DNA of 64,000 bases from Candidatus Doudnabacteria bacterium (GTDB lineage: Bacteria; Patescibacteriota; Doudnabacteria; UBA920): positions 840,717 through 904,716 of the forward strand of contig CAVYGQ010000001.1 of NCBI GenBank assembly GCA_963768175.1, given 5' to 3'. A program made the translations under genes and the position numbers. Positions 3,602-61,936 of this stretch are shown in pieces (position 1 is the stretch's first letter; the number at the start of each line of letters is the position of its first letter). Below the pieces are notes generated by a model, which was not told the origin of the DNA, searched no databases, and saw only the letters and a program-made list of their open reading frames with translations.

Positions 3602-3612
3602 AAATAAGTAAT

Positions 3613-3666
3613 GTAGCGCGCCGATTTATCGGCAACTTGAGACAGCCCATAAATGGGCATGCTACG
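3613..3666. repeat. Compound palindromic intergenic repeat (copy 1 of 2; second copy at 55585-55637)
   Basis: GTAGCGCGCCGATTTATCGGCA...AGCCCATAAATGGGCA(T/C)GCTAC. Two inner palindromes, GCCGATTTATCGGC and GCCCATAAATGGGC, sit inside a GTAGCG/CGCTAC outer stem. Both copies carry identical 22-nt and 16-nt blocks. Confidence 0.8.
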
Positions 3667-13192: not shown

Positions 13193-13219
13193 CACTAAGC
13201 ACTTAGCACTAATCACTAA
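13193..13219. repeat. Heptamer tandem repeat (CACTAAG/CACTTAG)n, the reverse complement of (GTGCTTA)n at 61898-61936
   Basis: cactaagcacttagcactaatcactaa lies immediately 3' of gyrA. Confidence 0.7.
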
Positions 13220-13220
13220 T

Positions 13221-15686
13221 TTAAATTATCGTCGCACTCGCCACTTTATCTCCCTCATCCAGCCTCATTACCCTTACGCCTTGGGTGGCGCGGCCTAATG
13301 TGGAAACTTTGTTCAGTGGCGTGCGGATGGTTTGGCCGGATTTGGAAATTATGACCAAGTCGTGCTCTTCACTGTTGTTTAAAATATGCATGCTGACAAT
13401 TTTCCCGGTCTTGGGCGTAACTTTTACGGTTTTAATGCCGCTGCCGCCGCGCTTTTGCACTTTATAATACGACGCTTCGGTTTTTTTACCCAAACCGTTT
13501 TCCGTAACCACCAGAACTTCCAGAGTTTTTACATCCACGCTTTTGCGGATAATATCCATGCTGATAATCTTGTCGTCTTTTTTCAGGCGCATGCCGGTAA
13601 CGCCGCTGGCGTTTCGGCCCATGGCCCGGACGTCCTTCTCGCTAAAGCGGATGGCTTGGCCGTTTTCCGTGGACAGCATAATTTGGTCTTCGCCACTGGA
13701 GGTTTCCACCCACTTTAATTCATCGGCGCCTTTTAGGGAAATAGCTATCATGCCGCTGCGCCGTACTTTACTGAATTCGTCGCGGCTGGTTTTTTTAATC
13801 AGTCCGTTTTTGGTGGCCATAACCAGGAATTTGGCGTTGTCTTTTTTGGAAAAAGTAAGCACGGCTTGCGAAGTCTCGCCGCTTTGCAGCTGCAGGAAAT
13901 TCACCAAAGCCTGGCCTTTGGAAACGCGCGTGCCCTCGGGTAGCTCGTAAACTTTGGTCTGGAATACCCGTCCTTTGTTGGTGAAAAAGAGAATATCGTC
14001 GTGGGTATTGGAAGAAATAAGCTTTTCCACCACGTCTTCTTCTTTTAAGGTTTGGCCGATCACGCCTTTGCCGCCGCGGCTTTGGGTTTTGTAGGTGTCC
14101 GGCGCCAGGCGCTTGACATAGCCGGATTTGGTAATGGTAATAATTACGTTACTTTCCGGAATCAGATCTTCGGCAGAGAAGCTTCCAATGGCATTTTTTA
14201 TTACTTGCGTCCGGCGTTCGTCGCCAAAGCGAGACTTCATATCTTCCACCTCACTTCTAATAATTCCCAAAATTTTCTTCTTGGATTGCAAAATACCTTC
14301 CAATTCTTCTATTAAATTCTTTTTTTCTTTTAATTCGTCGTCAATTTTTTTACGCTCCAGGCCGGCCAAAGTTTGCAGGCGCATTTCCAAAATCGCGTCC
14401 GCCTGGATGTCCGTGAGCTTGAATTTTTTGATTAAATTGACTTTGGCTTCTTCCTTGGTGGGTGATTTTTTGATGGTGTTTATAACCTCATCAATACGGT
14501 CCAGGGCTTTTTTTAAGCCTTCCAGAATGTGGGCGCGTTCTTTGGCCTTTTTGAGTTCAAATTCCGTGCGTTTGCGCACCACAATTTCGCGGTGCTGCAA
14601 ATATTTTTCCAGGACAGTTTTTAAATTCAGGACATGGGGCTCAATGCCGTCTACCAAAGCCAGCATGTTCATGTGGAAAGATTCCTGGAGTTGGGTGTAG
14701 GAAAACAGCTGGTTTAAAATTTTGTTGGGCAACCCGTCTTTTTTTATGTCTATGACAATGCGCACGCCGTCTTTGTCGCTTTCGTCGCGTACGTCGCGGA
14801 TGCCTTCTATTTTTTTATCGCGGACCAGTTCGGCAATTTTTTCAAGTAAGGTGGCTTTGTTCACGCGGTAAGGAATCTCGTGGACCAAAATTTGGTAAGC
14901 GCCGGATTTGCTTTCTGTAATTTCCGTTTTGGCGCGCATCACAATACTGCCTTTGCCCGTGGCATAGGCGTTCTTAATGGCCGCGATGTCGTAAATTATG
15001 CCGCCGGTGGGGAAGTCCGGTCCCTTAACAAATTCCATTAGGTCTTCGGTAGTGGCTTCCGGGTCGTCAATTAGTTTAACAATGGCATCGCAAATTTCGC
15101 CTAAGTTGTGGGGCGGGATGTCTGTGGCCATGCCTACGGCAATGCCGAGCGTACCGTTAAGCAACAGATTAGGCAGTTTGCCCGGCAAGACCACTGGCTC
15201 TTTGCGTGTGGCGTCATAGTTGTCGCGCCAGTCCACGGTTTCTTTATCCAAGTCTACCAACAATTCTTCGGCCAAAGCGGACATGCGGGCTTCGGTGTAA
15301 CGCATGGCCGCGGCGCCGTCGCCGTCCATGGAGCCAAAGTTCCCCTGTCCGTCTATTAGCGGATAGCGCATGGCAAACAGCTGGGCCATATGGACCATGG
15401 AGTCGTAAACCGCAATATCGCCGTGGGGATGGTACTTGCCCAACACGTCTCCGACTACGGCCGCGGATTTGCGGAATTTGACGTTGTGGCGCAGTCCCAG
15501 TTCGTGCATCACGTATAAAATGCGCCTGTGCACGGGCTTTAAGCCGTCGCGGACATCCGGCAGGGCGCGGCTGACAATTACGCTCATGGCGTAATCCAAA
15601 TACGATTCCTGCATTTCCGTCTGGATGTCGCGCTGCTTGATTTCCCCGATGTCGGTGCTAAGTTCTGCTTTGGAATCTTTAGGCAT
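13221..15686 (-). CDS. gyrA: DNA gyrase subunit A
   Basis: [27 protein letters not shown] motif with C-terminal beta-pinwheel repeats. The start is refined to the ATG at 15684-15686; the track start at 15701 is a TTG. Confidence 0.93.
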
Positions 15687-15692
15687 AAAGGT

Positions 15693-15770
15693 AATGAACA
15701 AAAATTAAAAAAATGACACAAATGAGCAAAAATGAACTGTGGTAATTTCCGTCATTTTTATTATTTTTTA
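15693..15770. repeat. AT-rich repeat AATGA(A)CAAAAATTAAAAAAATGACA with an inverted TGTCATTTTTATT arm (copy 1 of 4)
   Basis: Other copies are at 19073-19165, 42272-42368 and 54402-54440. Confidence 0.75.
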
Positions 15771-15967: not shown

Positions 15968-16056
15968 AATTTTCTACTAAATACTAAAATGGGCTAAATA
16001 CGAAACTTTGGATATCCGTTGTTTAGTATTTTGCTCCTTTTCGTATTTAGTAGAGG

Positions 16057-18891: not shown

Positions 18892-19072
18892 CCCCTTTTT
18901 ATCCGTCTTTGGAGATTTGGTTCAAAGGACGGAGCTTTTGTTTCTTTAAGTTTTAATTTCCGCAAAGACCTGCGCGGATAACCCTTTAATGCCCCGATAC
19001 AGCCAAGGCTAAGAGTCACCTCTAGTATACTGTTTAAGCCAGAAATTGCAAATCGGTTATCCCCCAGAGAGG

Positions 19073-19165
19073 AAATGACAAAAATGAACAAAAATTAAAA
19101 AATGACAAAAGTTATTGCAGTAGTATTTTTGTCATTTTTATTATTTATTTAATTTTTGTCATTAT
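19073..19165. repeat. AT-rich TGACAAAAAT repeat element (copy 2)
   Basis: aaatgacaaaaatgaacaaaaattaaaaaatgacaaaag...tttttgtcatttttatt. Confidence 0.75.
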
Positions 19166-19169
19166 CCCC

Positions 19170-20558
19170 TTACCATCCGAACATTTTTCCGACCTCTTCC
19201 GACGTTTCACGGCGCCGGGCGATTTTAATTTCCCCGTTTTGGGCAATTAGCTTGGCCGGGGAAGACAGCAGGCAGTGGTGCGAGGCCAGGGAGTCTTGGT
19301 AGGCTCCGGTATCTAAAAATGCGATAAACAGTTCGTCTACATCTCCAAGGCGCGGAAGCAGTATATAGCCGCCGCCGGAGGTGTATTTGTCGTCGCTGTC
19401 GCAGGAACTGCCGGCCAGCCAGACCTTCTCGAGTTTTTTGGTTGTCATATTGTTGACCGGAATTACGTGCCATTTTTGGTGGATGGCCCAAGTATCAATT
19501 AAGTCATTCATAAAGCTGCCATCTATAACGTACCATTTGTTGTTGCCTTTATTGGTCACGGTTTTTTCGGCCAAGATTTTGTAAATGGTAATTTGCGCCG
19601 GCGCCGCAACATACCTGCCCCATTCGGCAATTAGATTGGGATGTCGTATGCCCAGTTTTTCGCTGTGGTTTTTTGCCGTTTTTACTAAGGCATGAATTAA
19701 ACTTTTGGCCGAGTAAAAATGTTTTTTCTTTTCGTAAGGCACGCCCGCCCCGCCGCCAATATCCAAAGTATCCAGTCCCGGATTTTTTTCCTTCAGCTTG
19801 GCGTAAAGTTCCAGCGCGCGCTTAAGCGGTTTGGCCATGCCGTCAATTTTTTCTATCTGGCTGGAAATGTGGTAGTGCAAAACCGAGAGGTTGCGGACTT
19901 TCCCCAAATCCAAAAGTTCTTTTTCCGTAAAGCCGTAACGGTTAAATTTTTTATCCCAATGGCTGTTGACTTTAAGGTCTAAATTTACGCGCACGCCCAT
20001 CTCGCCTTTGAATTTGGACATGTGTTCCAGTTCCACATAATCTTCTATAATCGGGATAACAATTAACCCTTTGGCTTTTAGCTCGTCAATTAATTCAATA
20101 TATTTGGGGGTCTTGGGGCCGTTACAAATAACGCGGATTTTGGAATTAAATTTATCCTGCTCTATCATCCTTTTAACTAAAAACAGCTCATTAGCGCTTG
20201 CTACGTCCAGGTTGGCGCCTTCGGCTACCGCCGGCAAAACAATTTCCTTGTTTTGGTTGACCTTCATGGCGTAGTGGTAGTAAAATTTGCCGCGGTAGCC
20301 CAATACTTTAATGTAGGCGTTAAAGGTTTCAATAAGGTCGCGCACGCGGCTTTCAATAACGGTGGGAAAAACAATTTCCGTTGCCGTGCCGTATTTTTTT
20401 ACAATATCAAAAATATTGTATTGGAAGTTCCCCTCCCTTACAATCAACTCGCCGTCCGGAGAAATGTCGAACATCTGGGTGTTGTATTCTTCAATGCCCA
20501 AACGCCAGAATTTTTTAGAGTCATTCTTTTTTTTCTTTGCTCGAGCTGTTGGGGTCAT
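19170..20558 (-). CDS. speA: Biosynthetic arginine decarboxylase-like PLP (fold III) enzyme
   Basis: SpeA-like N-terminus (YNTQMFDISPDGELIVREG) and an alanine-racemase-fold decarboxylase core. The start is taken at the ATG at 20556-20558; the track start is a GTG at 20597. Confidence 0.7.
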   Translation of the reverse strand: MTPTARAKKKKNDSKKFWRLGIEEYNTQMFDISPDGELIVREGNFQYNIFDIVKKYGTATEIVFPTVIESRVRDLIETFNAYIKVLGYRGKFYYHYAMKVNQNKEIVLPAVAEGANLDVASANELFLVKRMIEQDKFNSKIRVICNGPKTPKYIELIDELKAKGLIVIPIIEDYVELEHMSKFKGEMGVRVNLDLKVNSHWDKKFNRYGFTEKELLDLGKVRNLSVLHYHISSQIEKIDGMAKPLKRALELYAKLKEKNPGLDTLDIGGGAGVPYEKKKHFYSAKSLIHALVKTAKNHSEKLGIRHPNLIAEWGRYVAAPAQITIYKILAEKTVTNKGNNKWYVIDGSFMNDLIDTWAIHQKWHVIPVNNMTTKKLEKVWLAGSSCDSDDKYTSGGGYILLPRLGDVDELFIAFLDTGAYQDSLASHHCLLSSPAKLIAQNGEIKIARRRETSEEVGKMFGW

Positions 20559-20577
20559 ACGTGCGATTAGGTTGGAA

Positions 20578-20680
20578 GAGGACTGTCCTCTGGCCACAAT
20601 TAATATCGTTTAATAAATAATAGCTTGGTATTTATAGATCATTTTCTAAAATTATCAGTCTCTGCCAGAGGACAGTCCTC
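20578..20680. promoter_or_regulatory. Pair of near-identical 13-bp palindromes (GAGGACTGTCCTC and GAGGACAGTCCTC) about 90 bp apart, upstream of speA
   Basis: Seen directly at 20578-20590 and 20668-20680. Confidence 0.5.
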
Positions 20681-20688
20681 GTCATCAA

Positions 20689-21867
20689 TTATTGGTTAAT
20701 GTGTACTACCTTGGCCACCGGGAAGCCATTAAAGTCGGTGGCCGAGGCTAAAGTATAGGCGCCAATGTTTTCCGCGTAAAGCAAATCGTCAATCTGTAAA
20801 TCCTCCGGCAGTTCGTCTGCCAAGGAAATCGTATCAAACGCATCGCAGGTCGGACCGAAAGTTGCGCAAACTTTCAAATCGCCGTCCTTAAAAGAATGAA
20901 GCGGGTAATGCTGGTGGTCGTAAACCTGGCCGGAGAAAGTATGGTACACGCCGTCATCTAGATAATAACAGGTCTTGCCATCACGGATAGATTTGCCGAT
21001 AATTTTGGTAATCAAAGTGCAGGCCGTGGCAACCATAAATCGTCCGGGTTCGGCAATAACTTGAATATTGTCTTTTCCAAACAAGCGCTTTATTTCCGAA
21101 TTCAGTTTTTTGGCAAGTATGGTAAAAGATTTGGCGTCAGAGTCGTATTTTACCGGAAAGCCGCCGCCGATGTCCAAAACCTTTTTTCTCTTTTTCTCTT
21201 TGTCTAGAAAACCGATTTCAAACCCGCGCAGTTGCGCTTCTTTAAAAATTGAAGAGCAGATTTGCAAGGCTTGAATGTAATTGTCAAAATTATTGCATTG
21301 GCTGCCGACGTGGAAACTGATGCCTTCCACGCCTAGACCTAAATTAATGGCTTCCGCAATCAAATCCACCGCTTCGCCCGGATGCGCGCCGAATTTGGAA
21401 GACAGCTCTACCATGCTTCCGGTATTGGGGACGCGTATTCTTAATATTAAACCGACATCGGGGGCATGCTGTTTGATTTTTTTCAGCTCCTCTATGTTGT
21501 CAAAGGTTACCAAAATTTTATAAGGGTTAAGTTTGGTCAAAACTTTAGCCGGCTTAATGGTATTGGCATAGATTATTTTGTCCCAAATAAAATCCTGTCG
21601 CTCTTTTTCCGGCCAGTCTTCAATGTGCTTATAAACCAATTTGAATTCAAAAATGGAGGCCACGTCAAAGCTTGAGCCCATATTGAACATGGTCTTGATA
21701 ATCTCCGGATTGGAGTTGGCTTTAACTGCGAAATATAGTTGCACGTCCGGCAGTTTTTCTCTAAATTCTTTAAAATTTTGCTTTAAGATTTCGTGGTCAA
21801 CCACGAACAACGGGGTACCATTTTTAGCTGCCAATTCTAGCAAAAGTTTTTTGCGTTCTTGGGTCAT
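20689..21867 (-). CDS. Fold-III PLP decarboxylase (ornithine/lysine/carboxy(nor)spermidine decarboxylase family)
   Basis: A lysine in YFAVKAN for the PLP Schiff base, a GGGFPV motif and 392 aa. Confidence 0.7.
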   Translation of the reverse strand: MTQERKKLLLELAAKNGTPLFVVDHEILKQNFKEFREKLPDVQLYFAVKANSNPEIIKTMFNMGSSFDVASIFEFKLVYKHIEDWPEKERQDFIWDKIIYANTIKPAKVLTKLNPYKILVTFDNIEELKKIKQHAPDVGLILRIRVPNTGSMVELSSKFGAHPGEAVDLIAEAINLGLGVEGISFHVGSQCNNFDNYIQALQICSSIFKEAQLRGFEIGFLDKEKKRKKVLDIGGGFPVKYDSDAKSFTILAKKLNSEIKRLFGKDNIQVIAEPGRFMVATACTLITKIIGKSIRDGKTCYYLDDGVYHTFSGQVYDHQHYPLHSFKDGDLKVCATFGPTCDAFDTISLADELPEDLQIDDLLYAENIGAYTLASATDFNGFPVAKVVHINQ

Positions 21868-21904: not shown

Positions 21905-22459
21905 TTAGAGTATCTGATGATTTTTTGACAAACTTAAACCATGCGATAACAACCAGGCCTCAACCTCTTTAGCTATTTTTTCGCTCATCCAATAACCCCT
22001 GGAAAGAGCAGCAATATCGGTTTTGGTAAGATCTTCAATAGTTTGAATGTTTGATCGTTTTGCCGTGGTATAAAAAGAGTTCGTGGCTCTAGTTCTTGAA
22101 AGCTTAATTATTGTCACTGGTTGTTTTAACAATTCTTGCTTAATATGTATCTCATTTTCTGCTATACGTTCTGCTTCCTTGTCTAATAAAGGTTTAAGTT
22201 TCCTAATCTCCGGATTAGTTTTTTCGTTTCGAGAAAGATCGCGAATAGGTTTTTCAATTTCAGCCATGGTTTCAGCTGTAATTGGATCTTCCACTTGGTT
22301 TATTCTTCTCTCTATTTCTTCGGAGCGGCGTTGAGTATTTTCAGGATTCACGAAATACCCTTTCTTATTATCATTCCCGCGAAAGCGGAAATTAGATTCC
22401 CGATCAGCTTTGGAATGACATAATGATAATAAATTATGGAATAAACCTAAAATTCTCAA
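21905..22459 (-). CDS. Hypothetical protein whose C-terminus resembles an RNA polymerase alpha-CTD-like HhH domain
   Basis: The C-terminal segment NIQTIEDLTKTDIAALSRGYWMSEKIAKEVEAWLLSHGLSL resembles an alpha-CTD. Confidence 0.4.
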   Translation of the reverse strand: MRILGLFHNLLSLCHSKADRESNFRFRGNDNKKGYFVNPENTQRRSEEIERRINQVEDPITAETMAEIEKPIRDLSRNEKTNPEIRKLKPLLDKEAERIAENEIHIKQELLKQPVTIIKLSRTRATNSFYTTAKRSNIQTIEDLTKTDIAALSRGYWMSEKIAKEVEAWLLSHGLSLSKNHQIL

Positions 22460-23924
22460 ACTGCCAAACGTCCGCGGCCGGTTTGCTGGCCGGGTTTTCT
22501 TTGAAGTAGATTTTACGATTCTTTAGGGGCGTCCAGTCAGACGGCGTGGAAATAAAGTCGCCGAGATAAGGTTTTGCAATATCCAGCACAAAATCGTGCG
22601 GCAAGTCGTCAGGCAGGCAAATACCTTTTTTCGGATTTTCAAACATCCATAGTACGGCGGCAATTACGCCTAGCGCGACCTGTAAAGTGGTGGCATTTTG
22701 GCCAGGTGCCAGCCTCCGGGCTTCCTGTATGCTTAAATCGCTCCCTGTCCACCAAGAATTATACCGATGCCCCATCAGTAGCGCGCCTAAAATGTCCGCC
22801 CCGGAAGTAATCTCATCTTCCAAAATTCTTATCTTGGACTGCATTTCGTAATTCCTGCCGCGAAGTTCGCATAAAGAAGATAGTGTTTCGTGGCACGGCA
22901 TATACGCGTAATGCACTGTCGGGCGGTAAACTGCCCTATCTCCATCCCAAACTGTTAACCTGTCGGATAACCCAAATGCTTCGCCGTGGCGAATGACCAT
23001 GCCCACAATTTCTTCGTTGGGAATCCATGACCTTACCCAGGTATTAATTCCCATTTGGGAGAGCATAATCTGATTTTTTGGCCCGTAAGGCGGAATATTA
23101 GCCAAGTCCGGTAGCCTTTGTTCGTGTGTGCCCCAACCCATCTCGGCCGGCGCGGTTCCTTCTTCCCGCAAGCCTTCCACGCTCCAGGTTCCTACAAATT
23201 CATCAACTTCTTTTGGGCGATTGGTAATTTGCGTGTCGCGCTCGCTGCAGTGGATTACTTTGATTCCCAATTTTTGTCCGAGCAAATTGAATTTGAGGTT
23301 TTTAATATAATTTTCCAGTTCTTCCCTGTCTTTGCCAGCCACTTTTTTATCTGCGATTGTTTTATTGCCGATATCAATCAATCCTTGTTTGACAAAATGG
23401 GAGATCAAACCGGGGTTTGCGCCATGGTCCACGACTGCCGTAGTGGCGTCTTTCCAGTCTTTGGACATGTCGTGCAGTTTCATTTGGCGCCAGTAAAGCG
23501 ATTTTTCAAATGGGCTGTCAGTAAATAATCCCTTAATGGAATCCCAGATTTCAACCGAAGTATTTACATACAAAACATTATGGTCGTGGCACCAGCCGAT
23601 AATATCATTAGCACCAATATTCCATGCCAAATCTATAATCAGGCCGCCCTTGTCTGTGTATTTGGCCAACTCCGGGCCTAGGTTTTCCGGCGTAATCCTG
23701 TTGCGTACAAATTTGATGCCCTTGTCCGTGAATTTTTTTAAAGCCGCTGCTTTGTCTTCAAAATCCATTACCGTGACGTTTTTTGGGTCAACCTCAATTT
23801 TTTCCAGCAGAATCGGCAGGGTGCACTGCGACACCGCGCCATAACCGATAATCAAAATTTTGCGGTCAAACTTTTTTTTTCCGCCGGAGGCGGATCCGCC
23901 TTTAGCGGACATACGTTTTTCCAT
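22434..23924 (-). CDS. hss: Homospermidine synthase / saccharopine-dehydrogenase-family enzyme
   Basis: NAD-binding N-terminus (ILIIGYGAVSQCTLPILLEK) and 496 aa. An in-frame AKGGSASGG cassette sits near the N-terminus. Confidence 0.55.
   Translation of the reverse strand: MEKRMSAKGGSASGGKKKFDRKILIIGYGAVSQCTLPILLEKIEVDPKNVTVMDFEDKAAALKKFTDKGIKFVRNRITPENLGPELAKYTDKGGLIIDLAWNIGANDIIGWCHDHNVLYVNTSVEIWDSIKGLFTDSPFEKSLYWRQMKLHDMSKDWKDATTAVVDHGANPGLISHFVKQGLIDIGNKTIADKKVAGKDREELENYIKNLKFNLLGQKLGIKVIHCSERDTQITNRPKEVDEFVGTWSVEGLREEGTAPAEMGWGTHEQRLPDLANIPPYGPKNQIMLSQMGINTWVRSWIPNEEIVGMVIRHGEAFGLSDRLTVWDGDRAVYRPTVHYAYMPCHETLSSLCELRGRNYEMQSKIRILEDEITSGADILGALLMGHRYNSWWTGSDLSIQEARRLAPGQNATTLQVALGVIAAVLWMFENPKKGICLPDDLPHDFVLDIAKPYLGDFISTPSDWTPLKNRKIYFKENPASKPAADVWQFENFRFIP
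23880..23903. repeat. 24-nt palindromic cassette AAAGGCGGATCCGCCTCCGGCGGA (in minus orientation) in frame in hss
   Basis: Identical 24-mers occur at 44773-44796 (murA) and 53990-54013 (murF). Each encodes KGGSASGG. Confidence 0.85.
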
Positions 23925-32440: not shown

Positions 32441-32548
32441 GACGTCATTCCGAGCGCCTGCAATATCGCGCGAGGAATCTCTTATTGGCAGTTCGTTATT
32501 TAAGAGATCCTTCACCCTTCGGATGCACTCGGGGTTCAGGATGACGCC
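32441..32548. repeat. Palindromic element of the GGCGTCATYCTGA...TCAGGATGACGCC family (copy A, intergenic, degenerate left end)
   Basis: It shares the GAGATCCTTCACCCTTCGGATGCACTCGGGGTTCAGGATGACGCC right half with copies at 43990, 54177 and 57344. Confidence 0.8.
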
Positions 32549-32618
32549 GCTAATTTGGATGTTTGAGCCTTGAAAAATGTCAGTACTTGGGGTATAATCT
32601 ATAGGCAAATTTGATAAT

Positions 32619-35085: not shown

Positions 35086-35205
35086 AATACCGTTAATGCA
35101 AAATTTTCAATTTTTAATTTTCAGTTTTCAAACAATTTTTAATTATCCAATTTTAAAATTAAGTTATTGAAAATTGTTTAGAAATTAGAAATTGAGAATT
35201 ATAAA

Positions 35206-35691
35206 TTATTTTTCCTCGTGTATTTTACGTATAACTTCGTCTATATGCTGCACATATCTCGGGCTAGTGTCTAGATGGAAGCTTATTCGGGGAATGACTT
35301 TGGTGGCAAAGTGCTTGTTAACTTCGCCCTGGAGGTCGTAAATGTTTTTTCCCAAAAATGTTAAGATTTTATAGTCCAAAGATAGAGCAGTCTGAGATTT
35401 TTTATCAGCCTGCGACAAACTTTTTTTCCCTCTCCCTTCTTGCCCGCCGTAGCCTTGGCGAAGGCGGGTGGGAGAGGGTGCCCCAAGCCCGTCTTGGGGC
35501 GGGTGAGGGTCTGGGTTAAAAATAGAAATCCAAATTTTGGCGTACTTCATATCTTTGCTGGTTTCCACTTTGGTTATGGTCACCAGGCCTTTTTGCCAAT
35601 CCAAAAATTTATGCAAAACCGGCCCCAATTCGTGCTGGATTAAGGAGTTTACCTTAGCTATGCGGTTGGTGTCTTTTTTTACCGGCTTCAT
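35206..35691 (-). CDS. rbfA: Ribosome-binding factor A with an in-frame insertion of about 40 aa
   Basis: RIAKVNSLIQHELGPVL and the C-terminal KH-like part match RbfA. The middle segment NPDPHPPQDGLGAPSPTRLRQGYGGQEGRGKK is encoded by a GC-rich hairpin element. Confidence 0.75.
   Translation of the reverse strand: MKPVKKDTNRIAKVNSLIQHELGPVLHKFLDWQKGLVTITKVETSKDMKYAKIWISIFNPDPHPPQDGLGAPSPTRLRQGYGGQEGRGKKSLSQADKKSQTALSLDYKILTFLGKNIYDLQGEVNKHFATKVIPRISFHLDTSPRYVQHIDEVIRKIHEEK
35427..35516. repeat. REP-like hairpin element in frame in rbfA (conserved loop GTAGCCTTGGCGAAG)
   Basis: cccgcc-GTAGCCTTGGCGAAG-gcggg, the flanking cctctccc/gggagagg stem and a second hairpin gccccaag...cttggggc. Confidence 0.7.
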
Positions 35692-41423: not shown

Positions 41424-42266
41424 TTAGAATGTACGGTTTTTTCCCACAATCATCTTCAGCCTCTGAGGGATTATTTCCACGGTGCTGGGGAATTTGGCAA
41501 CAACGCGGCCGAGCATGGTCAAATTGGTGCCGCGCGGCTCCAAAAATTCAATTTTTTTGCATTTAATGACTGTGGTATTGGGCACCTTTTCCAGACAGCC
41601 TTCTGAAATAATGTTGCGGTATTTTAAAACCTGCATTTTATTAAGGTGCTCCATTATGAGCAGATCTAAATTGCCGTCCGTGGGGTTGGCGATTTTTTCG
41701 CTTTGGCAGGAAGTGGAACGGATGTTGGCCACCAGTCCGCCGAGCCCGTTTATGGTCACGTTGTAAGAATCATCCACCCGGATGGTAAAGCCTTTTGCCT
41801 CCGAAGAAAGCAGCTTCAGGCTTTGCCACAAAGAGGCGGTTTTGATGTTGTGGGACATTACGCCAAATTCCAGAAAGCTGATAAAATAATTGCCGGAAAT
41901 TTTGGCCAGGTCAATTTTTTCTATGCGCCTGGCGGCAATGGTTTTTACGCCCAAAAAGACGTTTTCAATGCCTAAAATTTTTGCCAAATTTGAATTTTCA
42001 TCAAACGGGATAAAACCCAAAGTAAAATCCCGCCCCTTAAGCGCCGCCAGCATTAAGTTAAAGGTATCGTCACTGCCGCAGGCCACCAAAGTATTGGTGC
42101 CTCTTTGGCTGGCCGTATCCACCAAATCCTGCACGCTGCGCAAGGGAGTTACCCTTGAAGCCTCGCCGGAAACTTTAAATTCGGCCAAAAGCCCGGAAAG
42201 CTCGGTCTGGAGCTTCTCAAATTTTTCCATGGGCAAATTGTGCTGGTCGAGGATATAGTAGTGCAC
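41424..42266 (-). CDS. Diacylglycerol-kinase catalytic-domain lipid kinase (YegS-like)
   Basis: The VACGSDDTFNLMLAAL region resembles the GGDGT motif. The start is a GTG. Confidence 0.6.
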   Translation of the reverse strand: MHYYILDQHNLPMEKFEKLQTELSGLLAEFKVSGEASRVTPLRSVQDLVDTASQRGTNTLVACGSDDTFNLMLAALKGRDFTLGFIPFDENSNLAKILGIENVFLGVKTIAARRIEKIDLAKISGNYFISFLEFGVMSHNIKTASLWQSLKLLSSEAKGFTIRVDDSYNVTINGLGGLVANIRSTSCQSEKIANPTDGNLDLLIMEHLNKMQVLKYRNIISEGCLEKVPNTTVIKCKKIEFLEPRGTNLTMLGRVVAKFPSTVEIIPQRLKMIVGKNRTF

Positions 42267-42271
42267 AAAAG

Positions 42272-42368
42272 AAATGACAAAAATTAAAAAAATAATAAAA
42301 ATGACAAAAATAAATGGGCCTATAATTTTTGCTCATTTATGCCAATTTTGTCATTTTTGCTCATTACC
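42272..42368. repeat. AT-rich TGACAAAAAT repeat element (copy 3)
   Basis: aaatgacaaaaattaaaaaaataataaaaatgacaaaaat...ttttgtcatttttgctcatt. Confidence 0.75.
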
Positions 42369-42369
42369 T

Positions 42370-42788
42370 TTACTCTTCTGGTTCAATAAGGGGTTCGGCT
42401 TTTTCCACGGGAGTTTTCTTGCCGCTGCCCCCGCTTACTCCGTTGCCGCCCATAACGCACTTGCCGGAAAATTGGGCACCGTCTTCCACCCTAAAAACCG
42501 TGCAGACAATATCCCCTAAAACTTTTGCCGTACTCTGTAATATCAAATGCCCGGATATTTTTAAGTTACCCTGTATTTCCCCGCCGACCACGGCATTGCC
42601 CGCCAAAATGTCTGCCGCAATTTTGGCCCCGGGACAACAAATACGCTCTGGCTAGTTTTGACTTTGCCGCTTACCTGGCCTTCTATTTTTATGTTGCCTT
42701 CGCTGTTTAAATCTCCTTGAATTTTAACGCTGGGGCCGACTACGGTTTCGGCCGGGCTGTTTAGGTTCTCGTCTAAGGTTTTGTCCAT
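42370..42788 (-). pseudogene. Bactofilin (DUF583), split by a 1-nt frameshift in a ggccccggg run
   Basis: The N-terminal ORF (42561-42788) ends ...KVKTSQSVFVVPGPKL. The C-terminal ORF (42370-42606) continues in another frame with ...PGAKIAADILAGNAVVGGEIQGNLKISG. Joined, they give a canonical bactofilin. Confidence 0.6.
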
Positions 42789-43989: not shown

Positions 43990-44075
43990 GGCGTCATCCT
44001 GAGCGTAGCGAAGGATCTCATTAAAGAAAGAGATTCTTCACCCTTCGGATGCTACTTCAGGTTCAGAATGACGCC
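43990..44075. repeat. Palindromic element GGCGTCATCCTGAGC...TTCAGAATGACGCC (copy B, intergenic, upstream of murA)
   Basis: Terminal inverted repeats plus an internal palindrome, GAAGGATCTC..GAGATTCTTC. Confidence 0.8.
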
Positions 44076-44094
44076 TTAGGAAAGAAAATATTAT

Positions 44095-45648
44095 ATGCAA
44101 AACCTTATAAAGGATCAGCAGAAAATCGGCCAGTTTATAGCCGAAGTCCGTGAGCTTAAAGGCTTTACCCAAAGCCAGTTTGCCAAAAGCTTAAAAACCA
44201 GCCAGTCAGCCGTAGCCAGGATGGAAAGCGGCCAGCAAAACTTAACTACAGAGATGCTGGCTAAGATTAGCGCAGTTTTGAACCATGAAATTATTACGTT
44301 GGCCGACAAGTCGGTAAATTTTAAAATAGAAGGCGGGCGGAAACTTTCGGGAAGGGTCGCGGTTAATACTTCCAAGAATGCCGCGGTGGCGCTGTTGTGC
44401 GCTTCTTTGCTTAATGAAGGTAAAACTATTTTTAAGAATGTGCCTAAAATAGAGGAAGTCTACCGGGTAATTGAAGTTTTGGTCAGTCTTGGCGTCTCGG
44501 TAAAATGGCAGGGCGCGGATGTGGAAATTTTGCCGGGCAAAAAAATTACCATAAATAAAATAGACAAAGAAGCCGCGGTTAAAACCAGAAGCGTTCTTAT
44601 GCTGCTTGGGCCTTTGGCTCATATTCTTCCCGCTTTTAACCTGCCTTTGGCCGGCGGCTGCAAACTGGGCGAACGGACCGTGAGGCCGCATTTGTTTGCT
44701 TTGGAAAAGCTTGGAGTTAAAATTCAGACCCATCATGACCATTACGCCGTAAGCTCGGCTAAAGCTCCCGCCAAAGGCGGATCCGCCTCCGGCGGAAAAA
44801 CCGCGGAGGTAGTGCTTTACGAAATGGGTGACACAGTGACGGAAAACACGCTTATGGCCGCGGCAAAAATAAACGGCGTGACCACCATCAAGCTGGCCTC
44901 TTCCAATTACATGGTGCAGGATTTATGTCATTTTTTGCAAAGTTTGGGCGTAAAAATTGAAGGCGTGGGTACCTCCACCTTAAAAGTGCATGGCAAACCG
45001 CACATTAACCAGCGTGTGGTCTTTTATTTAAGCGAAGACCCCATAGAAGCCATGCTGTTTTTGTCTTTGGCTGTCACCACAAATTCTTCCATAACCGTTG
45101 AGCGCTGCCCCATAGACTTTTTGGAGCTGGAACTGTTGAAATTGGAAAAGATGGGGTTTAAGTACCGGATTATTAAGCGTTATAAAAGCCATAACGGTAT
45201 TACCAATTTGGCAGATATTAAGACTTTCCCGTCTAAATTAATCGCGCTGGAAGAAAAAATCCACCCGTTGACGTCCTCGGCCGGAATTAATATAGATAAC
45301 CTGCCGTTTTTTGTGCCCATTGCCACCCAGGCCAAAGGCACCACGCTGATTCACGACTGGGTTTACGAAAATCGCGCTATTTACTATTTGGAATTAAATA
45401 AGCTGCGGGCCAATATAATTTTGGCCGACGCCCACCGCGTTTACATAGACGGCCCGACCGAACTTAAAGCAGGCGAAGTCATTTGTCCCCCTGCCCTGCG
45501 CCCGGCCGCGATAATTCTAATTGCGATGTTAGCCGCCAAAGGCACCTCTATTCTCCGCAACGTTTATTCCATAAACCGCGGCTATGAGAATTTGGTGCAG
45601 CGATTACAGAAGCTCGGAGCCAAGATCGAAATGATACATGGCATGTAA
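44095..45648 (+). CDS. murA: UDP-N-acetylglucosamine 1-carboxyvinyltransferase fused to an N-terminal XRE-type HTH domain
   Basis: Residues 1-65 form an HTH_3 domain (IGQFIAEVRELKGFTQSQFAKSLKTSQSAVARMESGQQNL). The MurA core follows (KLSGRVAVNTSKNAA...). An in-frame AKGGSASGG cassette is also present. Confidence 0.85.
   Translation: MQNLIKDQQKIGQFIAEVRELKGFTQSQFAKSLKTSQSAVARMESGQQNLTTEMLAKISAVLNHEIITLADKSVNFKIEGGRKLSGRVAVNTSKNAAVALLCASLLNEGKTIFKNVPKIEEVYRVIEVLVSLGVSVKWQGADVEILPGKKITINKIDKEAAVKTRSVLMLLGPLAHILPAFNLPLAGGCKLGERTVRPHLFALEKLGVKIQTHHDHYAVSSAKAPAKGGSASGGKTAEVVLYEMGDTVTENTLMAAAKINGVTTIKLASSNYMVQDLCHFLQSLGVKIEGVGTSTLKVHGKPHINQRVVFYLSEDPIEAMLFLSLAVTTNSSITVERCPIDFLELELLKLEKMGFKYRIIKRYKSHNGITNLADIKTFPSKLIALEEKIHPLTSSAGINIDNLPFFVPIATQAKGTTLIHDWVYENRAIYYLELNKLRANIILADAHRVYIDGPTELKAGEVICPPALRPAAIILIAMLAAKGTSILRNVYSINRGYENLVQRLQKLGAKIEMIHGM
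44773..44796. repeat. 24-nt palindromic cassette AAAGGCGGATCCGCCTCCGGCGGA in frame in murA
   Basis: Identical to the copies in hss and murF. Confidence 0.85.
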
Positions 45649-52819: not shown

Positions 52820-54403
52820 ATGGACTTGTTTGTTCCAAAATTTATCCAATACCAATTATACCTGCTCCAGCTGGAAAATTATGAGCTGGGAAGGTATTGG
52901 AAATTGCTTATAAAAAAGGGAGTTTTCCCTAAAAAAAGCCAACCTTTGCGCAAAGAGCTGGTCTGGACCGCTAAAGCTCGGGCGTTAATGCTTATGGCTG
53001 TGGCCCTGCATGGTTTGGTGGTCGTTTTGGTTGGGCTTATGGTTTTAACTTTAAAGCCGGGCATAGATAACTTTTTTACCACAATAATTTTGGCGGTATT
53101 AATTTTGTTGCCGTTTTATTTTGTTTTTTTCAGTCTGGCTTTGTTAATCCTTAAGCCTTTGGACACTCTGGTAAAACAAAGCCTTGTGGCTAAAGCCAAA
53201 ACCAAGCTGGCTGGATTGCCTGATGTCAAGATAATCGGCGTTGCCGGCAGTTACGGCAAAACTACAATGAAGGAAGTGTTGAGGGCAGTGCTAAGTGCTA
53301 AGTTCAAAGTGCTAAGTACGCCGGAGAGCATAAACACGCCGGTGGGGATTGCCAGATGGATTATAAATAAAATAACGGACGAAACCCAAATTCTGATTGT
53401 AGAAATGGGGGAGCATTATGAGAAAGACGTTAAAGAAATTTGCGATATAGCAAAACCCGACATCGCGGTGGTTACCGGCATTAACGAATCCCACTTGGAG
53501 CGGATGAAAAAAATGGATACGGTTATTGCCACAATTTTTGAAATCGTGAGTAACGCCCAGCCCGGCGCGGCTATTGTGCTAAACGGCGATGATCGCAGGG
53601 TTATGGAGAATTATAAAAAATTTGTCTGGCCAGACCATCGGCTGGAATTTTTTACAAAAAATCCCGGCAGTGAAAAGTGTAAAGTGAAAAGTGCAAAGTT
53701 TAACACAGACAAGCTGTGTTGGAATTTAGAGATTGATGATCTTGGCTCGGTAGAACTGGATTTACTTGGGGAATACGCGTTGGGCGACGTTGACGCGGCC
53801 GTGAAAATTGCCAAAAGTTTGGGTATGAGCAATGAGCAAATTATCGCGGGGATCAAAAATATCAAGCCCGTGGAGCACAGGCTCCAGCCGATAAAGTCTG
53901 CCACGAATGTTTTGGTAATAGACGACAGTTACAACGGCAATTCCGACGGAGTAGTGGAAGCCATAAAAGTTTTGTCGCGCTTTTCCGCCAAAGGCGGATC
54001 CGCCTCCGGCGGAGAAGGCCGCCGGAAGATTTATATCACTCCCGGGCTGGTGGAAATAGGCAAAAGTTCCGCCGATATTCATCGCAGTATTGGCAAACAG
54101 CTGGCGGACGTTGCGGATGTGGTTATTTTGATAAAAAATAGCGCGACGGGGTTTATTGAAGAGGGAATCCTCTTAGGGCGTCATTCTGACCCTGAGCGGA
54201 GCGAAGGGGAAGAATCTCAAACTAAGGATAAAGAGATCCTTCGTCCCTCGGATGCACTCGGGGCTCAGGATGACGCCGCTGGTAAGAGACCAAGAATTAT
54301 CTGGTTTAATTCCGCCTTGGAAGCGTACGCGGGGCTAAAAGACATTTTAAAACCCGGGGATGTAATTTTGTTTCAGAACGATTGGGGAGACCAGTATTTG
54401 TAA
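52820..54403 (+). CDS. murF: UDP-N-acetylmuramoyl-tripeptide--D-alanyl-D-alanine ligase with an N-terminal TM extension and two in-frame repeat insertions
   Basis: Mur ligase ATP-binding motif GVAGSYGKTTMKE. Two in-frame inserts are present: the KGGSASGG cassette at 53990 and a palindromic element of about 100 nt at 54177-54277. Confidence 0.85.
   Translation: MDLFVPKFIQYQLYLLQLENYELGRYWKLLIKKGVFPKKSQPLRKELVWTAKARALMLMAVALHGLVVVLVGLMVLTLKPGIDNFFTTIILAVLILLPFYFVFFSLALLILKPLDTLVKQSLVAKAKTKLAGLPDVKIIGVAGSYGKTTMKEVLRAVLSAKFKVLSTPESINTPVGIARWIINKITDETQILIVEMGEHYEKDVKEICDIAKPDIAVVTGINESHLERMKKMDTVIATIFEIVSNAQPGAAIVLNGDDRRVMENYKKFVWPDHRLEFFTKNPGSEKCKVKSAKFNTDKLCWNLEIDDLGSVELDLLGEYALGDVDAAVKIAKSLGMSNEQIIAGIKNIKPVEHRLQPIKSATNVLVIDDSYNGNSDGVVEAIKVLSRFSAKGGSASGGEGRRKIYITPGLVEIGKSSADIHRSIGKQLADVADVVILIKNSATGFIEEGILLGRHSDPERSEGEESQTKDKEILRPSDALGAQDDAAGKRPRIIWFNSALEAYAGLKDILKPGDVILFQNDWGDQYL
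53990..54013. repeat. 24-nt palindromic cassette AAAGGCGGATCCGCCTCCGGCGGA in frame in murF
   Basis: Identical to the copies in hss and murA. Confidence 0.85.
54177..54277. repeat. Palindromic element GGCGTCATTCTGA...CTCAGGATGACGCC (copy C), inserted in frame near the murF C-terminus
   Basis: It encodes GRHSDPERSEGEESQTKDKEILRPSDALGAQDDAA and keeps the reading frame. Confidence 0.85.
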
Positions 54404-54440
54404 TGACAAAAATTAAAAAAATGACATAATTGACAAAAAT
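54402..54440. repeat. AT-rich TGACAAAAAT repeat (copy 4, short) between murF and alr
   Basis: taatgacaaaaattaaaaaaatgacataattgacaaaaatt. Confidence 0.7.
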
Positions 54441-54442
54441 TC

Positions 54443-55588
54443 ATGGGGACAATCGGAAAAATTTTTAATAAGATAGTATCACCAAAAATTAACTATCAAC
54501 CGCTTATAGAAGTGAGGATTTTTAAAGATGCCTTGCTGCATAATTTACACGTTTTCCAAGAAAAATATCCGAGCCTTGAGTTTGCCCCAGTGATAAAAAG
54601 CAACGCTTACGGACACGGTATGGTACAGGTGGCAAAAATTTTTGACAGCAAACCCAAAGCTTTTTTTATGGTGGACTCATTTTATGAGGCTTTGGTGTTA
54701 AGGCGCGCCGGAATTAAATCTAAAATTTTAATGCTGGGTTTTAACCGGATTGAGCAATTGATTAACCCCAAATTAAAAAATTGTTCCTCGGCGATTATTG
54801 ATTTCTCCACTTTGCAGGAAGTGGTGGCAAAATTAAAAAAGCCGGCGATCTTTCATCTCAAGATTGATACGGGTATGCACCGGCAGGGACTGTGGGGGGA
54901 AGAAGTAAATAAGGCAATTGCGTTAATCAAGTCTAACCCAAACTTTAATTTGGAGGGCTTATGCAGCCATTTGGCGGATGCCGACGGGGCTGGGCAGGAT
55001 TTTACCAAACAGCAGATTAGACTGTGGAATCAAGTCGTGGAAAAATTCAAACAAAACTTTCCCTCCATTAAATATTTCCATTTAGCCAATACCGCCGGGA
55101 CTTTTTATACCAACGAAATTACGGCCAACGTGGCGCGCATCGGCATCGGGCTGTATGGGTTAAATAATTCACAGTTTGAAAAGTTGGACTTAAAACCGGC
55201 TTTGGAAATGGCCTCTATTGTCACTTCCGTAAAAACTATTCCGGCTGGGGAGAAAATCGGTTACAATATAACTTATGAGGCGCCGAAAGAAACAAAAATC
55301 GCCACCGTACCGGCGGGATTCAACGAAGGCGTGGACCGCAGGCTTTCAAATAAAGGATTTTACCAAATTAAGGGGCAAAACTGTCCTTTGCGGGGCAAGG
55401 TGAGCATGAACATAAGCAGCGTGGAAGTAACCAGTGTCCCTGGAGTTAAAGTGGGGGATGAGGTGGTAATTATAAGCCGAAATCCGAGCGATAAAAATTC
55501 GGTGGAAAATATTGCCAAAATGTGCGACACGGTACATTACGAAATTCTGGTTCATATACCTTCTATATTAAGAAGAATAATAGTGTAG
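54443..55588 (+). CDS. alr: Alanine racemase
   Basis: PLP-lysine motif VIKSNAYGHG, 381 aa. Confidence 0.88.
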   Translation: MGTIGKIFNKIVSPKINYQPLIEVRIFKDALLHNLHVFQEKYPSLEFAPVIKSNAYGHGMVQVAKIFDSKPKAFFMVDSFYEALVLRRAGIKSKILMLGFNRIEQLINPKLKNCSSAIIDFSTLQEVVAKLKKPAIFHLKIDTGMHRQGLWGEEVNKAIALIKSNPNFNLEGLCSHLADADGAGQDFTKQQIRLWNQVVEKFKQNFPSIKYFHLANTAGTFYTNEITANVARIGIGLYGLNNSQFEKLDLKPALEMASIVTSVKTIPAGEKIGYNITYEAPKETKIATVPAGFNEGVDRRLSNKGFYQIKGQNCPLRGKVSMNISSVEVTSVPGVKVGDEVVIISRNPSDKNSVENIAKMCDTVHYEILVHIPSILRRIIV

Positions 55589-55637
55589 CGCGCCGATTTA
55601 TCGGCATCCTAAGATAGCCCATAAATGGGCACGCTAC
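55585..55637. repeat. Compound palindromic intergenic repeat (copy 2 of 2)
   Basis: GTAGCGCGCCGATTTATCGGCA...AGCCCATAAATGGGCACGCTAC. Confidence 0.8.
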
Positions 55638-61900: not shown

Positions 61901-61936
61901 TGCTTAGTGCTTAGTGCTTAGTGCTTAGTGCTTAGA
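61898..61936. repeat. Tandem heptamer (GTGCTTA)x5 immediately after the hsp20 stop
   Basis: tagtgcttagtgcttagtgcttagtgcttagtgcttag. It carries TAG stops in all three frames. Confidence 0.85.

Follow-up and report, generated by a model that had tools for sequence, protein, structure and literature searches.

The nucleic-acid-binding protein Avd is an accessory protein of diversity-generating retroelements (DGRs). The PF05635 family, which is homologous to the DGR accessory protein Avd (PMC10053308), holds the proteins of 23S rRNA intervening sequences (IVSs); in the Coxiella 23S IVS, terminal inverted repeats give a stem of 28 bp, the insertion is excised by RNase III, an S23p open reading frame (ORF) occupies the loop, and the 5' arm contains tandem GACAGAT heptamers that present a TGACA box every 7 nt (PMC4990558). 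In the rRNA genes of the candidate phyla radiation (CPR), IVS sites bear many short insertions without an ORF, and ORFs of the 23S_rRNA_IVP type also occur (PMC11270868). Here we analyse a 64,000-nt stretch of a Candidatus Doudnabacteria contig (CAVYGQ010000001.1, positions 840,717 to 904,716 of the forward strand; hereafter the window), in which an AT-rich repeat, the TGACA element, occupies four spacers between protein-coding genes. We consider it highly probable that these copies are ORF-less relatives of cassettes that carry a PF05635 gene. The combined statement, that the four sites are a miniature ORF-less form of an IVS-like cassette whose stem is cut by RNase III and whose TGACA units are recognised by a protein, we hold to be almost, and not quite, an even prospect; judged by likeness to the described systems, the repeats probably work like IVS-type cassettes and are probably derived from them.

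With the rRNA IVSs of Coxiella, Leptospira and Salmonella (PMC4990558) and the CPR insertions (PMC11270868) the family shares a size of ~90-450 nt, inverted repeats that form a long stem, an optional PF05635 loop ORF, sporadic presence and absence, and a 5' arm with short tandem repeats around a GACA core (GACAGAT in Coxiella, TGACAAAAA in the TGACA element). It differs in being extremely AT-rich and in lying in the spacers of protein genes, not in the rRNA helices whose interruption defines an IVS; its arms are modular, variable in unit order and not co-adapted, its distance to stop and start codons is stereotyped, and RNase III cleavage is predicted only. Terminal inverted repeats predicted to form an extended stem were found in 42 full copies and in window copies 2 and 3, not in copy 1, and the optional S23p/PF05635 loop ORF was found in other genomes.

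Correia elements of Neisseria (Correia repeat enclosed elements, CREE, or Neisseria miniature insertion sequences, NEMIS) and other MITEs (miniature inverted-repeat transposable elements; PMC2649163, PMC10969869, PMC2229807) resemble the TGACA element in being palindromic intergenic repeats of ~100 bp that occur in many copies and either orientation, carry promoter-like hexamers in their ends and are polymorphic between relatives for presence and absence; they are co-transcribed with their neighbours and their stems are RNase III substrates, both as proposed here for the TGACA element. Several features of MITEs were observed, namely small size, lack of coding capacity, terminal inverted repeats, many copies, and presence or absence at orthologous sites. 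In contrast to these families, however, the TGACA element has no TA or other target duplication, its partner ORF is PF05635 rather than a transposase, and its arms are tandem 9-nt units that are near-identical across many genomes and stand at a fixed 8-9 nt from start codons.

Two further groups of intergenic palindromes are instructive. Repetitive extragenic palindromes (REPs) are short and GC-rich, have GTAG-like heads, are paired with a Y1 HUH transposase, and affect mRNA when they lie near stop codons. Enterobacterial repetitive intergenic consensus (ERIC) sequences are strongly conserved between species without a known reason, and we know of no ORF-bearing form of ERIC or BOX and no reported codon-distance rule for either. 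Like ERIC, also called intergenic repeat units (IRU), and pneumococcal BOX (PMC3049150 for BOX), the TGACA element is an imperfect palindrome in presumably transcribed intergenic regions with no known mobilising enzyme, and it shares with ERIC a strong conservation between species and with BOX (PMC3049150) a modular build from repeated sub-units; sequence and host phyla are different. With REPs, their mosaic elements (BIMEs) and the associated RAYT genes (PMC3184786) it has in common an extragenic palindrome between operon genes and a family-specific sequence tied to a repeat-flanked partner gene, whereas REP size, GC richness, GTAG head and Y1 HUH partner are all absent. The family is best filed with IVS/MITE-like palindromic elements, here in intercistronic spacers of Patescibacteria; no earlier description of the motif, or of PF05635 cassettes in mRNA spacers, was found in the searchable literature.

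Four copies in the window and the anatomy of the family

An initial annotation of the window had placed a structured AT-rich repeat at 15693-15770, 19073-19165, 42272-42368 and 54402-54440. All four sites were present, with no fifth, as three full palindromic copies and one solo arm. A 24-mer (ATGACAAAAATTAAAAAAATGACA) allowed up to 3 mismatches matched exactly these four sites, and 0 of 100 dinucleotide-preserving shuffles gave a match; a 13-mer (AAATGACAAAAAT, up to 2 mismatches) matched 34 times against an expectation of 9.8 +/- 3.4, a count that no shuffle reached. When a profile hidden Markov model (nhmmer) built from 47 arms of other genomes was run on the window, it recovered only the same four sites. 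Chance similarity among low-complexity AT-rich spacers, the doubt that the initial annotation had raised against its own claim, draws on the AT-richness of the spacers within a 44% GC genome and on the fact that, outside the CPR, a 21-mer core of the motif is found as well in simple tandem repeats of AATGACAAA and in the N-terminal parts of unrelated coding sequences (MTKIKK...). It is refuted by the shuffle tests, by profile E-values down to 2.7e-9 and by a 39-nt arm that is identical between different genomes, and the codon geometry is moreover stereotyped; we give this reading a negligible probability. The repeat family is real and non-random.

Both orientations relative to genes occur, as had been proposed: the canonical arm lies on the plus strand at sites 1, 3 and 4 and on the minus strand at site 2, and the neighbouring genes, whose identities were confirmed by Pfam, run on the minus strand at sites 1-3 and on the plus strand at site 4. 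The accompanying description, direct TGACA(A) repeats plus an inverted TGTCAT arm in every copy, does not extend to site 4, a solo arm with no inverted TGTCA arm, and site 1 is degenerate, its T-rich arm being reduced to ATTTCCGTCATTTTTATTATTTTTT. The parts of the copies are as follows.

15694..15732, plus strand: A-rich arm of copy 1, ATGAACAAAAATTAAAAAAATGACACAAATGAGCAAAAA; profile match 15698-15729, nhmmer E = 1.8e-4
15745..15770, plus strand: degenerate T-rich arm of copy 1, ATTTCCGTCATTTTTATTATTTTTTA
19074..19112, plus strand: arm of copy 2 that is A-rich on this strand, AATGACAAAAATGAACAAAAATTAAAAAATGACAAAAGT
19113..19124: centre of copy 2, TATTGCAGTAGT; minus-strand reading ACTACTGCAATA, a variant of the family centre ACTGCAGT
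19125..19163, minus strand: canonical A-arm of copy 2, AATGACAAAAATTAAATAAATAATAAAAATGACAAAAAT; 4 mismatches to consensus; profile match 19126-19163, minus strand, E = 2.5e-5
42273..42311, plus strand: canonical A-arm of copy 3, AATGACAAAAATTAAAAAAATAATAAAAATGACAAAAAT; profile match 42273-42310, E = 1.9e-6
42312..42325: centre of copy 3, AAATGGGCCTATAA
42326..42365, plus strand: T-rich arm of copy 3, TTTTTGCTCATTTATGCCAATTTTGTCATTTTTGCTCATT
54402..54440, plus strand: solo A-arm of copy 4, AATGACAAAAATTAAAAAAATGACATAATTGACAAAAAT; 1 mismatch; profile match 54402-54439, E = 2.7e-9

The outer box of copy 1, TGAACA (15695-15700), stands 8 nt from the gyrA start codon (CAT 15684-15686, minus strand), and a minus-strand membrane ORF of 68 aa has its stop codon (15761-15763) within the T-rich arm. 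Copy 2 has 37-nt arms that are 81% complementary; on the minus (gene) strand the arm at 19074..19112 is the T-rich distal arm, and the A-arm begins 6 nt past the stop codon (19170-19172) of a pyridoxal-phosphate (PLP)-dependent decarboxylase gene. In copy 3, 8 nt separate the outer box from the GTG start codon (42264-42266) of a minus-strand gene for a diacylglycerol kinase (DAGK)/YegS-like kinase, and the T-rich arm ends 4 nt short of the bactofilin stop codon (42370-42372, minus strand); its A-arm and that of copy 2, read on the minus strand, are 98% alike over 40 nt. The core of its centre, AAATGGGCC, is kept in the orthologous copies of three other genomes, and the bases that follow vary (TATAA, CTCAA, CACAA, CTTAA). 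Copy 4 fills the spacer between murF and alr: the murF stop codon TAA (54401-54403) overlaps the first two bases of the arm, and the alr ATG (54443) lies 2 nt beyond it.

Across the family, copies are about 70-100 nt long and follow a strict 9-nt build that the initial annotation had not described, with TGACA-box units of 9-10 nt (TGACAAAAA, TTAAAAAAA, TGACAAAAT, TGARCAAAAA, CGACGGAAA). The best-conserved arm, the A-arm, reads AA, TGACAAAAA, TTAAAAAAA, TGACAAAAT, TGACAAAAA and T in succession, giving the near-invariant 39-nt sequence AATGACAAAAATTAAAAAAATGACAAAATTGACAAAAAT; it shows 0-4 mismatches between genomes and is identical in some, and in its variants one unit is replaced by TAATAAAAA or CGACGGAAA. 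The partner T-arm opens with ATTTTTG(Y)TCA and continues in variable order with TTTTTGTCA, ATTTTGTCA, TTTATGTCA, TTTCCGTCG or TTTTTGYTCA units, and the centre is often the short palindrome ACTGCAGT. TGACA boxes return in variant subfamilies with other spacers (e.g. GATTGACA, AATTGACA), and solo arms, site 4 included, make up about a third of the family.

PF05635 cassettes and the distribution of the family

Three properties lie beyond the view of the initial annotation, namely a spread across Patescibacteria, a fixed geometry relative to stop and start codons, and the presence of the same arms around PF05635 genes. A pattern scan over one genome per species returned 111 loci, and a scan of metagenomes with a 21-nt core of the motif returned 120 more (L numbers below denote fetched loci). 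In the one-per-species scan, every genome matched more than once was a Patescibacteria metagenome-assembled genome (MAG); these comprised several Doudnabacteria, the 'Patescibacteria group' MAGs AMAZON01 and FK_Sedi_B_Bin.235, FK3.bin112, and MAGs that their depositors had labelled Saccharibacteria. Single matches elsewhere were AATGACAAA tandem repeats or chance, and many non-CPR metagenome matches were genes starting MTKIKK. Altogether 85 further distinct copies of the family were obtained from 80 loci (Doudnabacteria, Patescibacteria group and Saccharibacteria MAGs, and metagenomes). The window itself is Doudnabacteria-like, its closest fetched relatives having about 80% nucleotide identity. 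A 25-mer of the motif was absent from the viral contigs searched, and there is thus no sign of phage origin; against Rfam, only tRNAs reached the gathering threshold in the window, and permissive scans of sites 2 and 3 gave noise far below gathering scores.

The evidence that ties the element to IVSs comes from copies with cargo. In some, GC-rich hairpin modules lie between an intact A-arm and T-arm, with the T-arm still 8-9 nt before the start codon (L026, L050, L211); the distance is 7 nt in L080 and 13 nt in L097. Other copies carry a ~125-aa gene that matches PF05635 (23S rRNA IVS protein; E = 5e-13 and 1e-13) and TIGR02436 (four-helix bundle; E = 2e-20), and for which 947 homologues were found at E <= 1e-10. 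The arms bracket the PF05635 gene in L132/L157, L138, L140, L222/L154, L231, L232/L028 and L243, in contexts that include the following.

Between hisS and the HIT gene, on an 868-kb Doudnabacteria contig
Between pilB and pilC
Between pilC and pilM (L243), with a canonical A-arm on the 5' side and a T-arm, 8 nt and ATG on the 3' side
Beside a glycosyltransferase gene, in a MAG that also holds ORF-less copies

At the orthologous junction of hisS and HIT an ORF-less element stands in L059 and L211 and a PF05635 cassette in L231 and L232, and both forms occur together in single MAGs (CAZHIA01, with L017, L042 and L242; CAWINB01, with L051 and L232). The 64-kb window holds no PF05635 gene. More divergent PF05635 genes were each bracketed by inverted arrays of a short AT-rich unit of their own, often with the ATG of the next gene directly after; five such genes lie at L017 3096-3419, L045 865-1176, L226 1190-1519, L242 879-1325 and L083 5686-6057, and the units are GGAAATT, AATTAGG, CAAGATT, AGATAGAAA and ATTTAAATGA+TGACA. 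As a separate observation, pilB or pilC beside the PF05635 cassette was called as two fragments in L234, L235, L238 and L240 (population variants from one study), which may reflect frameshifts or assembly errors near the repeat.

Comparison of orthologous junctions documents persistence as well as turnover. Three other genomes have copy 3 at the corresponding junction, 90-93% identical against 78-84% for the adjacent coding sequence, and the arm at the end of murF recurs in L178. Elsewhere the sites differ: the 29-nt spacer that the window has upstream of rsmI is replaced in L083 by a full copy, in L068 a solo arm follows a gene of the metallo-beta-lactamase (MBL) fold in place of a copy before gyrA, and L177 has a copy at a convergent junction where the window has the canonical terminator CACCTGG-attg-CCAGGTG. 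The divergent spacer between fpg and a relA-like gene holds the element in four genomes (L076, L044, L185, L029), in differing orientations, and in two further genomes holds other AT-rich palindromes of different 7-nt units. Copies within one genome share sub-type and centre (L176; AMAZON01 loci L018, L034 and L050), which points to amplification or gene conversion.

A broader proposal would make PF05635/S23p genes and their inverted unit arrays a single self-propagating cassette class, resident in rRNA helices and in the stop-start gaps of essential Patescibacteria operons, with TGACA arrays as recognition sites of the protein pentamer (for mobility or control of RNase III) and the ORF-less window copies as MITE-like satellites. 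We think this unlikely as a whole, if by no means far-fetched; were it true, it would offer the first functional handle on PF05635, a family without a function since IVSs were described in 1990. The link to PF05635 joins rRNA IVSs, Avd-like four-helix-bundle proteins and small intergenic repeats, which are usually treated apart, and hundreds of natural insertion sites, each with known neighbours, become a testing ground for the role and spread of IVSs and their ORF. The genomes of Patescibacteria are tiny and dense in genes, with an organisation of gene expression that is barely known, and a near-invariant 39-nt non-coding sequence that recurs in many of these genomes and is placed to the single nucleotide between stop and start codons, even in ribosomal-protein operons, is a strong candidate for a general RNA-level signal. 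There are practical consequences as well: the arms hold ATG, TTG and stop codons, and ORFs run into them, which misleads gene callers, and the repeats will break short-read CPR assemblies.

Codon geometry, pairing and recognition

All four window copies and all copies inspected elsewhere lay between protein-coding genes. In the usual layout one arm begins 0-6 nt past a stop codon, and a start codon follows 8-9 nt past the other arm. Among 47 outward T-rich arm ends with a long-ORF start within 5-13 nt, the start stood 8 nt past the last TCA in 23 and 9 nt past it in 13; 36 of the 47 thus fall at 8 or 9 nt, two bins of nine for chance to fill, and they include window gyrA (ATG 15684-15686) and the DAGK/YegS-like gene (GTG 42264-42266). 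The other arm ends adjoin stop codons (0-6 nt), often by a TAA that overlaps T/AATGACA, as at murF. Co-directional junctions dominate, in both orientations (24 vs 10), and L076 gave a clean divergent and L177 a convergent junction (one case). In L186, rplD runs 15 nt into the arm and stops at the arm's own TAA, and rplW starts 9 nt past the T-arm, which places this copy inside the S10 operon; other copies lie inside conserved operons between pilB and pilC, pilC and pilM, hisS and HIT, and, in the window, murF and alr. By comparison, none of 32 tRNA genes in element-bearing loci was within 250 nt of a copy, and no rRNA signature was seen in any fetched locus.

The proteins downstream of the 47 arm ends form 41 unrelated groups, among them Fpg, a DAGK-like kinase, HIT, ribosomal proteins L19, L23, L31 and S18, NusB, RadA, SecD and RsmI. 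There is therefore no regulon, and of the two options in the initial annotation, a dispersed repeat element or a symmetric protein-binding site rather than a simple promoter, the first is borne out by the occurrence in either orientation beside unrelated housekeeping genes, and the second, as the operator of a transcription-factor regulon, fails on the functionally unrelated downstream genes and on arms that are modular arrays with copy-specific unit order. Several other candidates were set aside. Copies are too rare and too strictly intergenic for DNA-uptake sequences; the neighbours are core genes, with no GTTRRRY core and no array, which does not suit integron attC sites; pairing of the anti-Shine-Dalgarno sequence with UGUCA was dropped, the motif being present in a minority of genes only; and none of DnaA-box, CtsR, MraZ, integration host factor (IHF), ComK-box, sigma-54 and extracytoplasmic-function (ECF) sigma consensus sequences fits.

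Most genes of the window lack a Shine-Dalgarno (SD) sequence; the 3-4 nt before their ATG are T-rich, many have a TATAAT-like box 5-13 nt upstream, and few carry GGAGG (e.g. 36603, 37397, 40355), which suggests widespread leaderless or very-short-leader mRNAs in this genome. The element might accordingly be read as a translation device, in which the U-rich arm 8-9 nt before the start would be an SD-independent landing site for the ribosome (S1) and, in full copies, the A-rich arm would mask this site until the ribosome ending the upstream gene melts the stem, giving coupling or reinitiation. The typical SD-to-AUG distance is indeed 8-9 nt, 0-6 nt separate the stop codon from the 5' base of the stem, SD sequences are almost lacking, the association is with protein-coding genes only, many neighbours are highly expressed (L19, L23, L31, S18, NusB, GyrA), and such a device would work in both orientations, solo T-rich arms (L012, L096, L097) included. 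It leaves unexplained, however, solo arms that are A-rich (site 4, L068, L178), junctions that are divergent (L076) or convergent (L177), the cargo genes, and the conservation of specific TGACA units rather than of any U-rich tract, and the geometry could equally be the footprint of tolerated insertions in very short spacers under deletion bias. We judge a translation device improbable.

Under the IVS-like reading that we prefer, the full form would be a cassette in which the same two arms enclose a ~125-aa PF05635/TIGR02436 gene (S23p, an Avd-like four-helix bundle). On transcription through a full copy, the A-rich and U-rich arms would pair into an imperfect, A-U-rich stem of ~30 bp, and RNase III would cut this stem, as it does the terminal inverted repeats of rRNA IVSs, and so separate the cistrons; the downstream gene would be left with a short, U-rich, SD-less leader of the type that this genome already uses. 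The conserved TGACA units would be recognition sites for spread or maintenance, possibly for the PF05635 protein, and solo arms would be relics or halves of cargo-bearing copies. The RNase III step, which rests on analogy with rRNA IVSs, is tentative and, taken by itself, somewhat doubtful.

Folding predictions are consistent with a stem in most full copies. All 42 full copies folded (42/42; median -21.8 kcal/mol, 31.5 arm-arm pairs, z = -4.6), each with z < -2, and in the window the folding energies were -32.6 and -31.0 kcal/mol for copy 2 (z = -5.5 and -7.9) and -24.5 and -21.2 kcal/mol for copy 3. Several results nevertheless weigh against the IVS-like cassette. For copy 1, the predicted hairpin does not outdo shuffled sequences (z = -1.2 and +0.1). 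The T-arm and A-arm of one copy pair no better than the A-arm does with T-arms of other copies (-21.3 vs -22.8 kcal/mol, permutation p = 1.0), and CGACGG and CCGTCG units are usually unmatched, which together imply that the stem is not maintained by compensatory change. The pairing stems from the shared repertoire of units, and it is the unit sequence that is conserved; the idea of a pure hairpin is weakened by the equal pairing of swapped arms. Solo arms, about a third of the family and site 4 among them, cannot form a stem at all, and they too obey the 8-9 nt rule, so this rule cannot depend on the stem alone. For RNase III the strong conservation of unit sequence would be superfluous, which suggests recognition by a protein. 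As regards mobility, no 2-5 nt direct repeat was found at the boundaries of 43 full copies beyond permutation noise, and no known transposase was found, the only ORF between the same ends being PF05635, a four-helix bundle without known transposase activity. The elements lie outside rRNA and are not IVSs in the strict sense; we infer both cleavage and, indeed, transcription through the element; and sigma-70 promoter matches do occur in the A-rich arms. The window showed no rnc gene, 64 kb being too short a range for this to be informative, and there were no rRNA or RNase III genes among the fetched CPR loci.

Conservation of units without conservation of pairing could mean that binding, rather than the stem, is selected, the element being an array of DNA or RNA sites for a protein that reads TGACA boxes 9 nt apart and acts in mobility, maintenance or local regulation; the PF05635 four-helix-bundle pentamer of the full cassette and a nucleoid-associated protein are candidates. 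Unit sequence is conserved where unit order and pairing are not, TGACA boxes recur in the variant subfamilies and in the GACAGAT heptamers of the Coxiella IVS, the flanking unit type differs from one PF05635 clade to the next, PF05635 and Avd are homologues (PMC10053308), and the orthologous copy at site 3 is more conserved than neighbouring coding DNA. On the other hand, the gene and flanking arms of one cassette would co-diverge by descent alone, so the match of clade and unit is no proof of recognition; the Coxiella S23p has been reported as probably not expressed (PMC4990558), units 9 bp apart are out of step with the helical repeat of DNA, no PF05635 gene lies in the window, and the fixed distance to start codons is left unexplained. 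We regard selection for binding in place of the stem as rather unlikely.

The initial annotation had further suggested that TTGACA-like words in the element mimic -35 boxes. Sigma-70-like matches do exist, although they reach only 9-10 of 12 positions, and they can be developed into a portable promoter and terminator cassette of Correia type, in which the A-rich reading of the arm would be an inward sigma-70 promoter, the U-rich partner arm would form the leader of the next gene and the hairpin would attenuate read-through from upstream. The layout would place a -35 box (ATGACA/TTGACA) in unit 1, an extended -10 box (TGnCAAAAT/CATAAT) in unit 3 and the transcription start in unit 4. The best match in the window is copy 4 (ATGACA, 16 nt, TG-n-CATAAT), which scores 10 of 12, with arms at sites 2 and 3 at 9 of 12; the genome uses canonical TTGACA/TATAAT boxes with short leaders, and the -10 box of site 4 occupies -18..-13 relative to the alr ATG, a position also found at other genes. 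The element also fills the divergent fpg/relA-like spacer in L076, L044, L185 and L029, so that the fpg promoter must lie inside it, copies take the place of ordinary promoter-like spacers in relatives (upstream regions of rsmI and gyrA), the convergent copy in L177 replaces the canonical terminator of the window, and Correia elements supply both promoters and RNase III sites (PMC2649163).

Nevertheless, the copies do not conserve the promoter register: the -7 T is missing from the CGACGG variant, and arms of this type fall out of register, as do most T-arms, whose unit order is variable. Copies lie within the S10 and pilus operons, where a terminator or new promoter is unexpected, tRNA genes, which likewise need promoter and terminator, have no nearby copy (0/32), and antisense solo arms stand directly upstream of start codons (L012, L096, L097). 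A simple-consensus scan for intrinsic terminators, which have a GC-rich stem of 5-20 bp, a 3-8 nt loop and a U tract directly after, called nothing at the four sites, whose stems are long and A-U-rich. Outward-reading promoter models were rejected for poor -10 boxes and spacings that are wrong by eye (TTGTCA-15-TAATTT in the A-arm reverse, TTGYTC-17-CATTTT in T-arms). The cassette of promoter and terminator also leaves the conservation of the 39-nt sequence and the PF05635 cargo unexplained, and we consider it unlikely as an account of the family; within the IVS-like reading, the promoter-like hexamers, at their best between murF and alr, are a secondary possibility.

Other repeats and neighbouring features of the window

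Two more AT-rich palindromes, built of different short units (AATTTTCA-type and CTAAATA-type), occupy 35102-35207 and 15973-16054; both extend from a stop codon to the next start codon on the minus strand, the same layout as that of the TGACA element, and further unit types were seen at orthologous sites elsewhere (GGAATTA in L001, GAAATT in L209). Inverted heptamer arrays of TTAGTGC/GCACTAA lie 48 kb apart at 13193-13219 and 61898-61930, the first just past the gyrA stop codon.

The window also contains GC-rich repeats. A 50-nt repeat (AAGAGATCCTTC...GGATGACGCCGCT) is found in spacers at 32502-32551 and 44028-44077 and, in frame, within the C-terminal part of murF at 54231-54280, and modules related to it occupy the centres of TGACA elements in other genomes. 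A 32-nt palindrome (CCGCCAAAGGCGGATCCGCCTCCGGCGG) at 23876-23908, 44768-44800 and 53984-54016 is in frame in three unrelated ORFs (22434..23924, 44095..45648 and murF), where it encodes AKGGSASGG each time and resembles the in-frame palindromic insertions of the Rickettsia palindromic element (RPE) type. The window murF, at 527 aa, is about 70-80 aa longer than usual. Separate from the TGACA element, a REP-like family of 57-nt double hairpins with a GTAG head (TGTAGCGCGCCGATTTATCGGC...GCCCATAAATGGGCAYGCTAC) is represented at 3609-3665 and 55581-55637 by modules that are 89% identical; the alr stop codon (55586-55588) falls within the second, which precedes ddl.

Beside copy 2, adjacent paralogous genes for PLP-dependent ornithine/arginine/diaminopimelate (Orn/Arg/DAP) decarboxylases lie at 19170-20597 and 20689-21867 on the minus strand, and the 180-nt spacer between the copy and a DUF378 gene (18892-19072), which gave no Rfam match, contains, besides an inverted repeat (GGGGGATAACC...GGGTTATCC), the promoter-like minus-strand sequence TTGCAA-16-TATACT. 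The bactofilin gene beside copy 3 is split over two overlapping frames (42370..42606 and 42561..42788), which suggests a frameshift, a sequencing error or programmed slippage.

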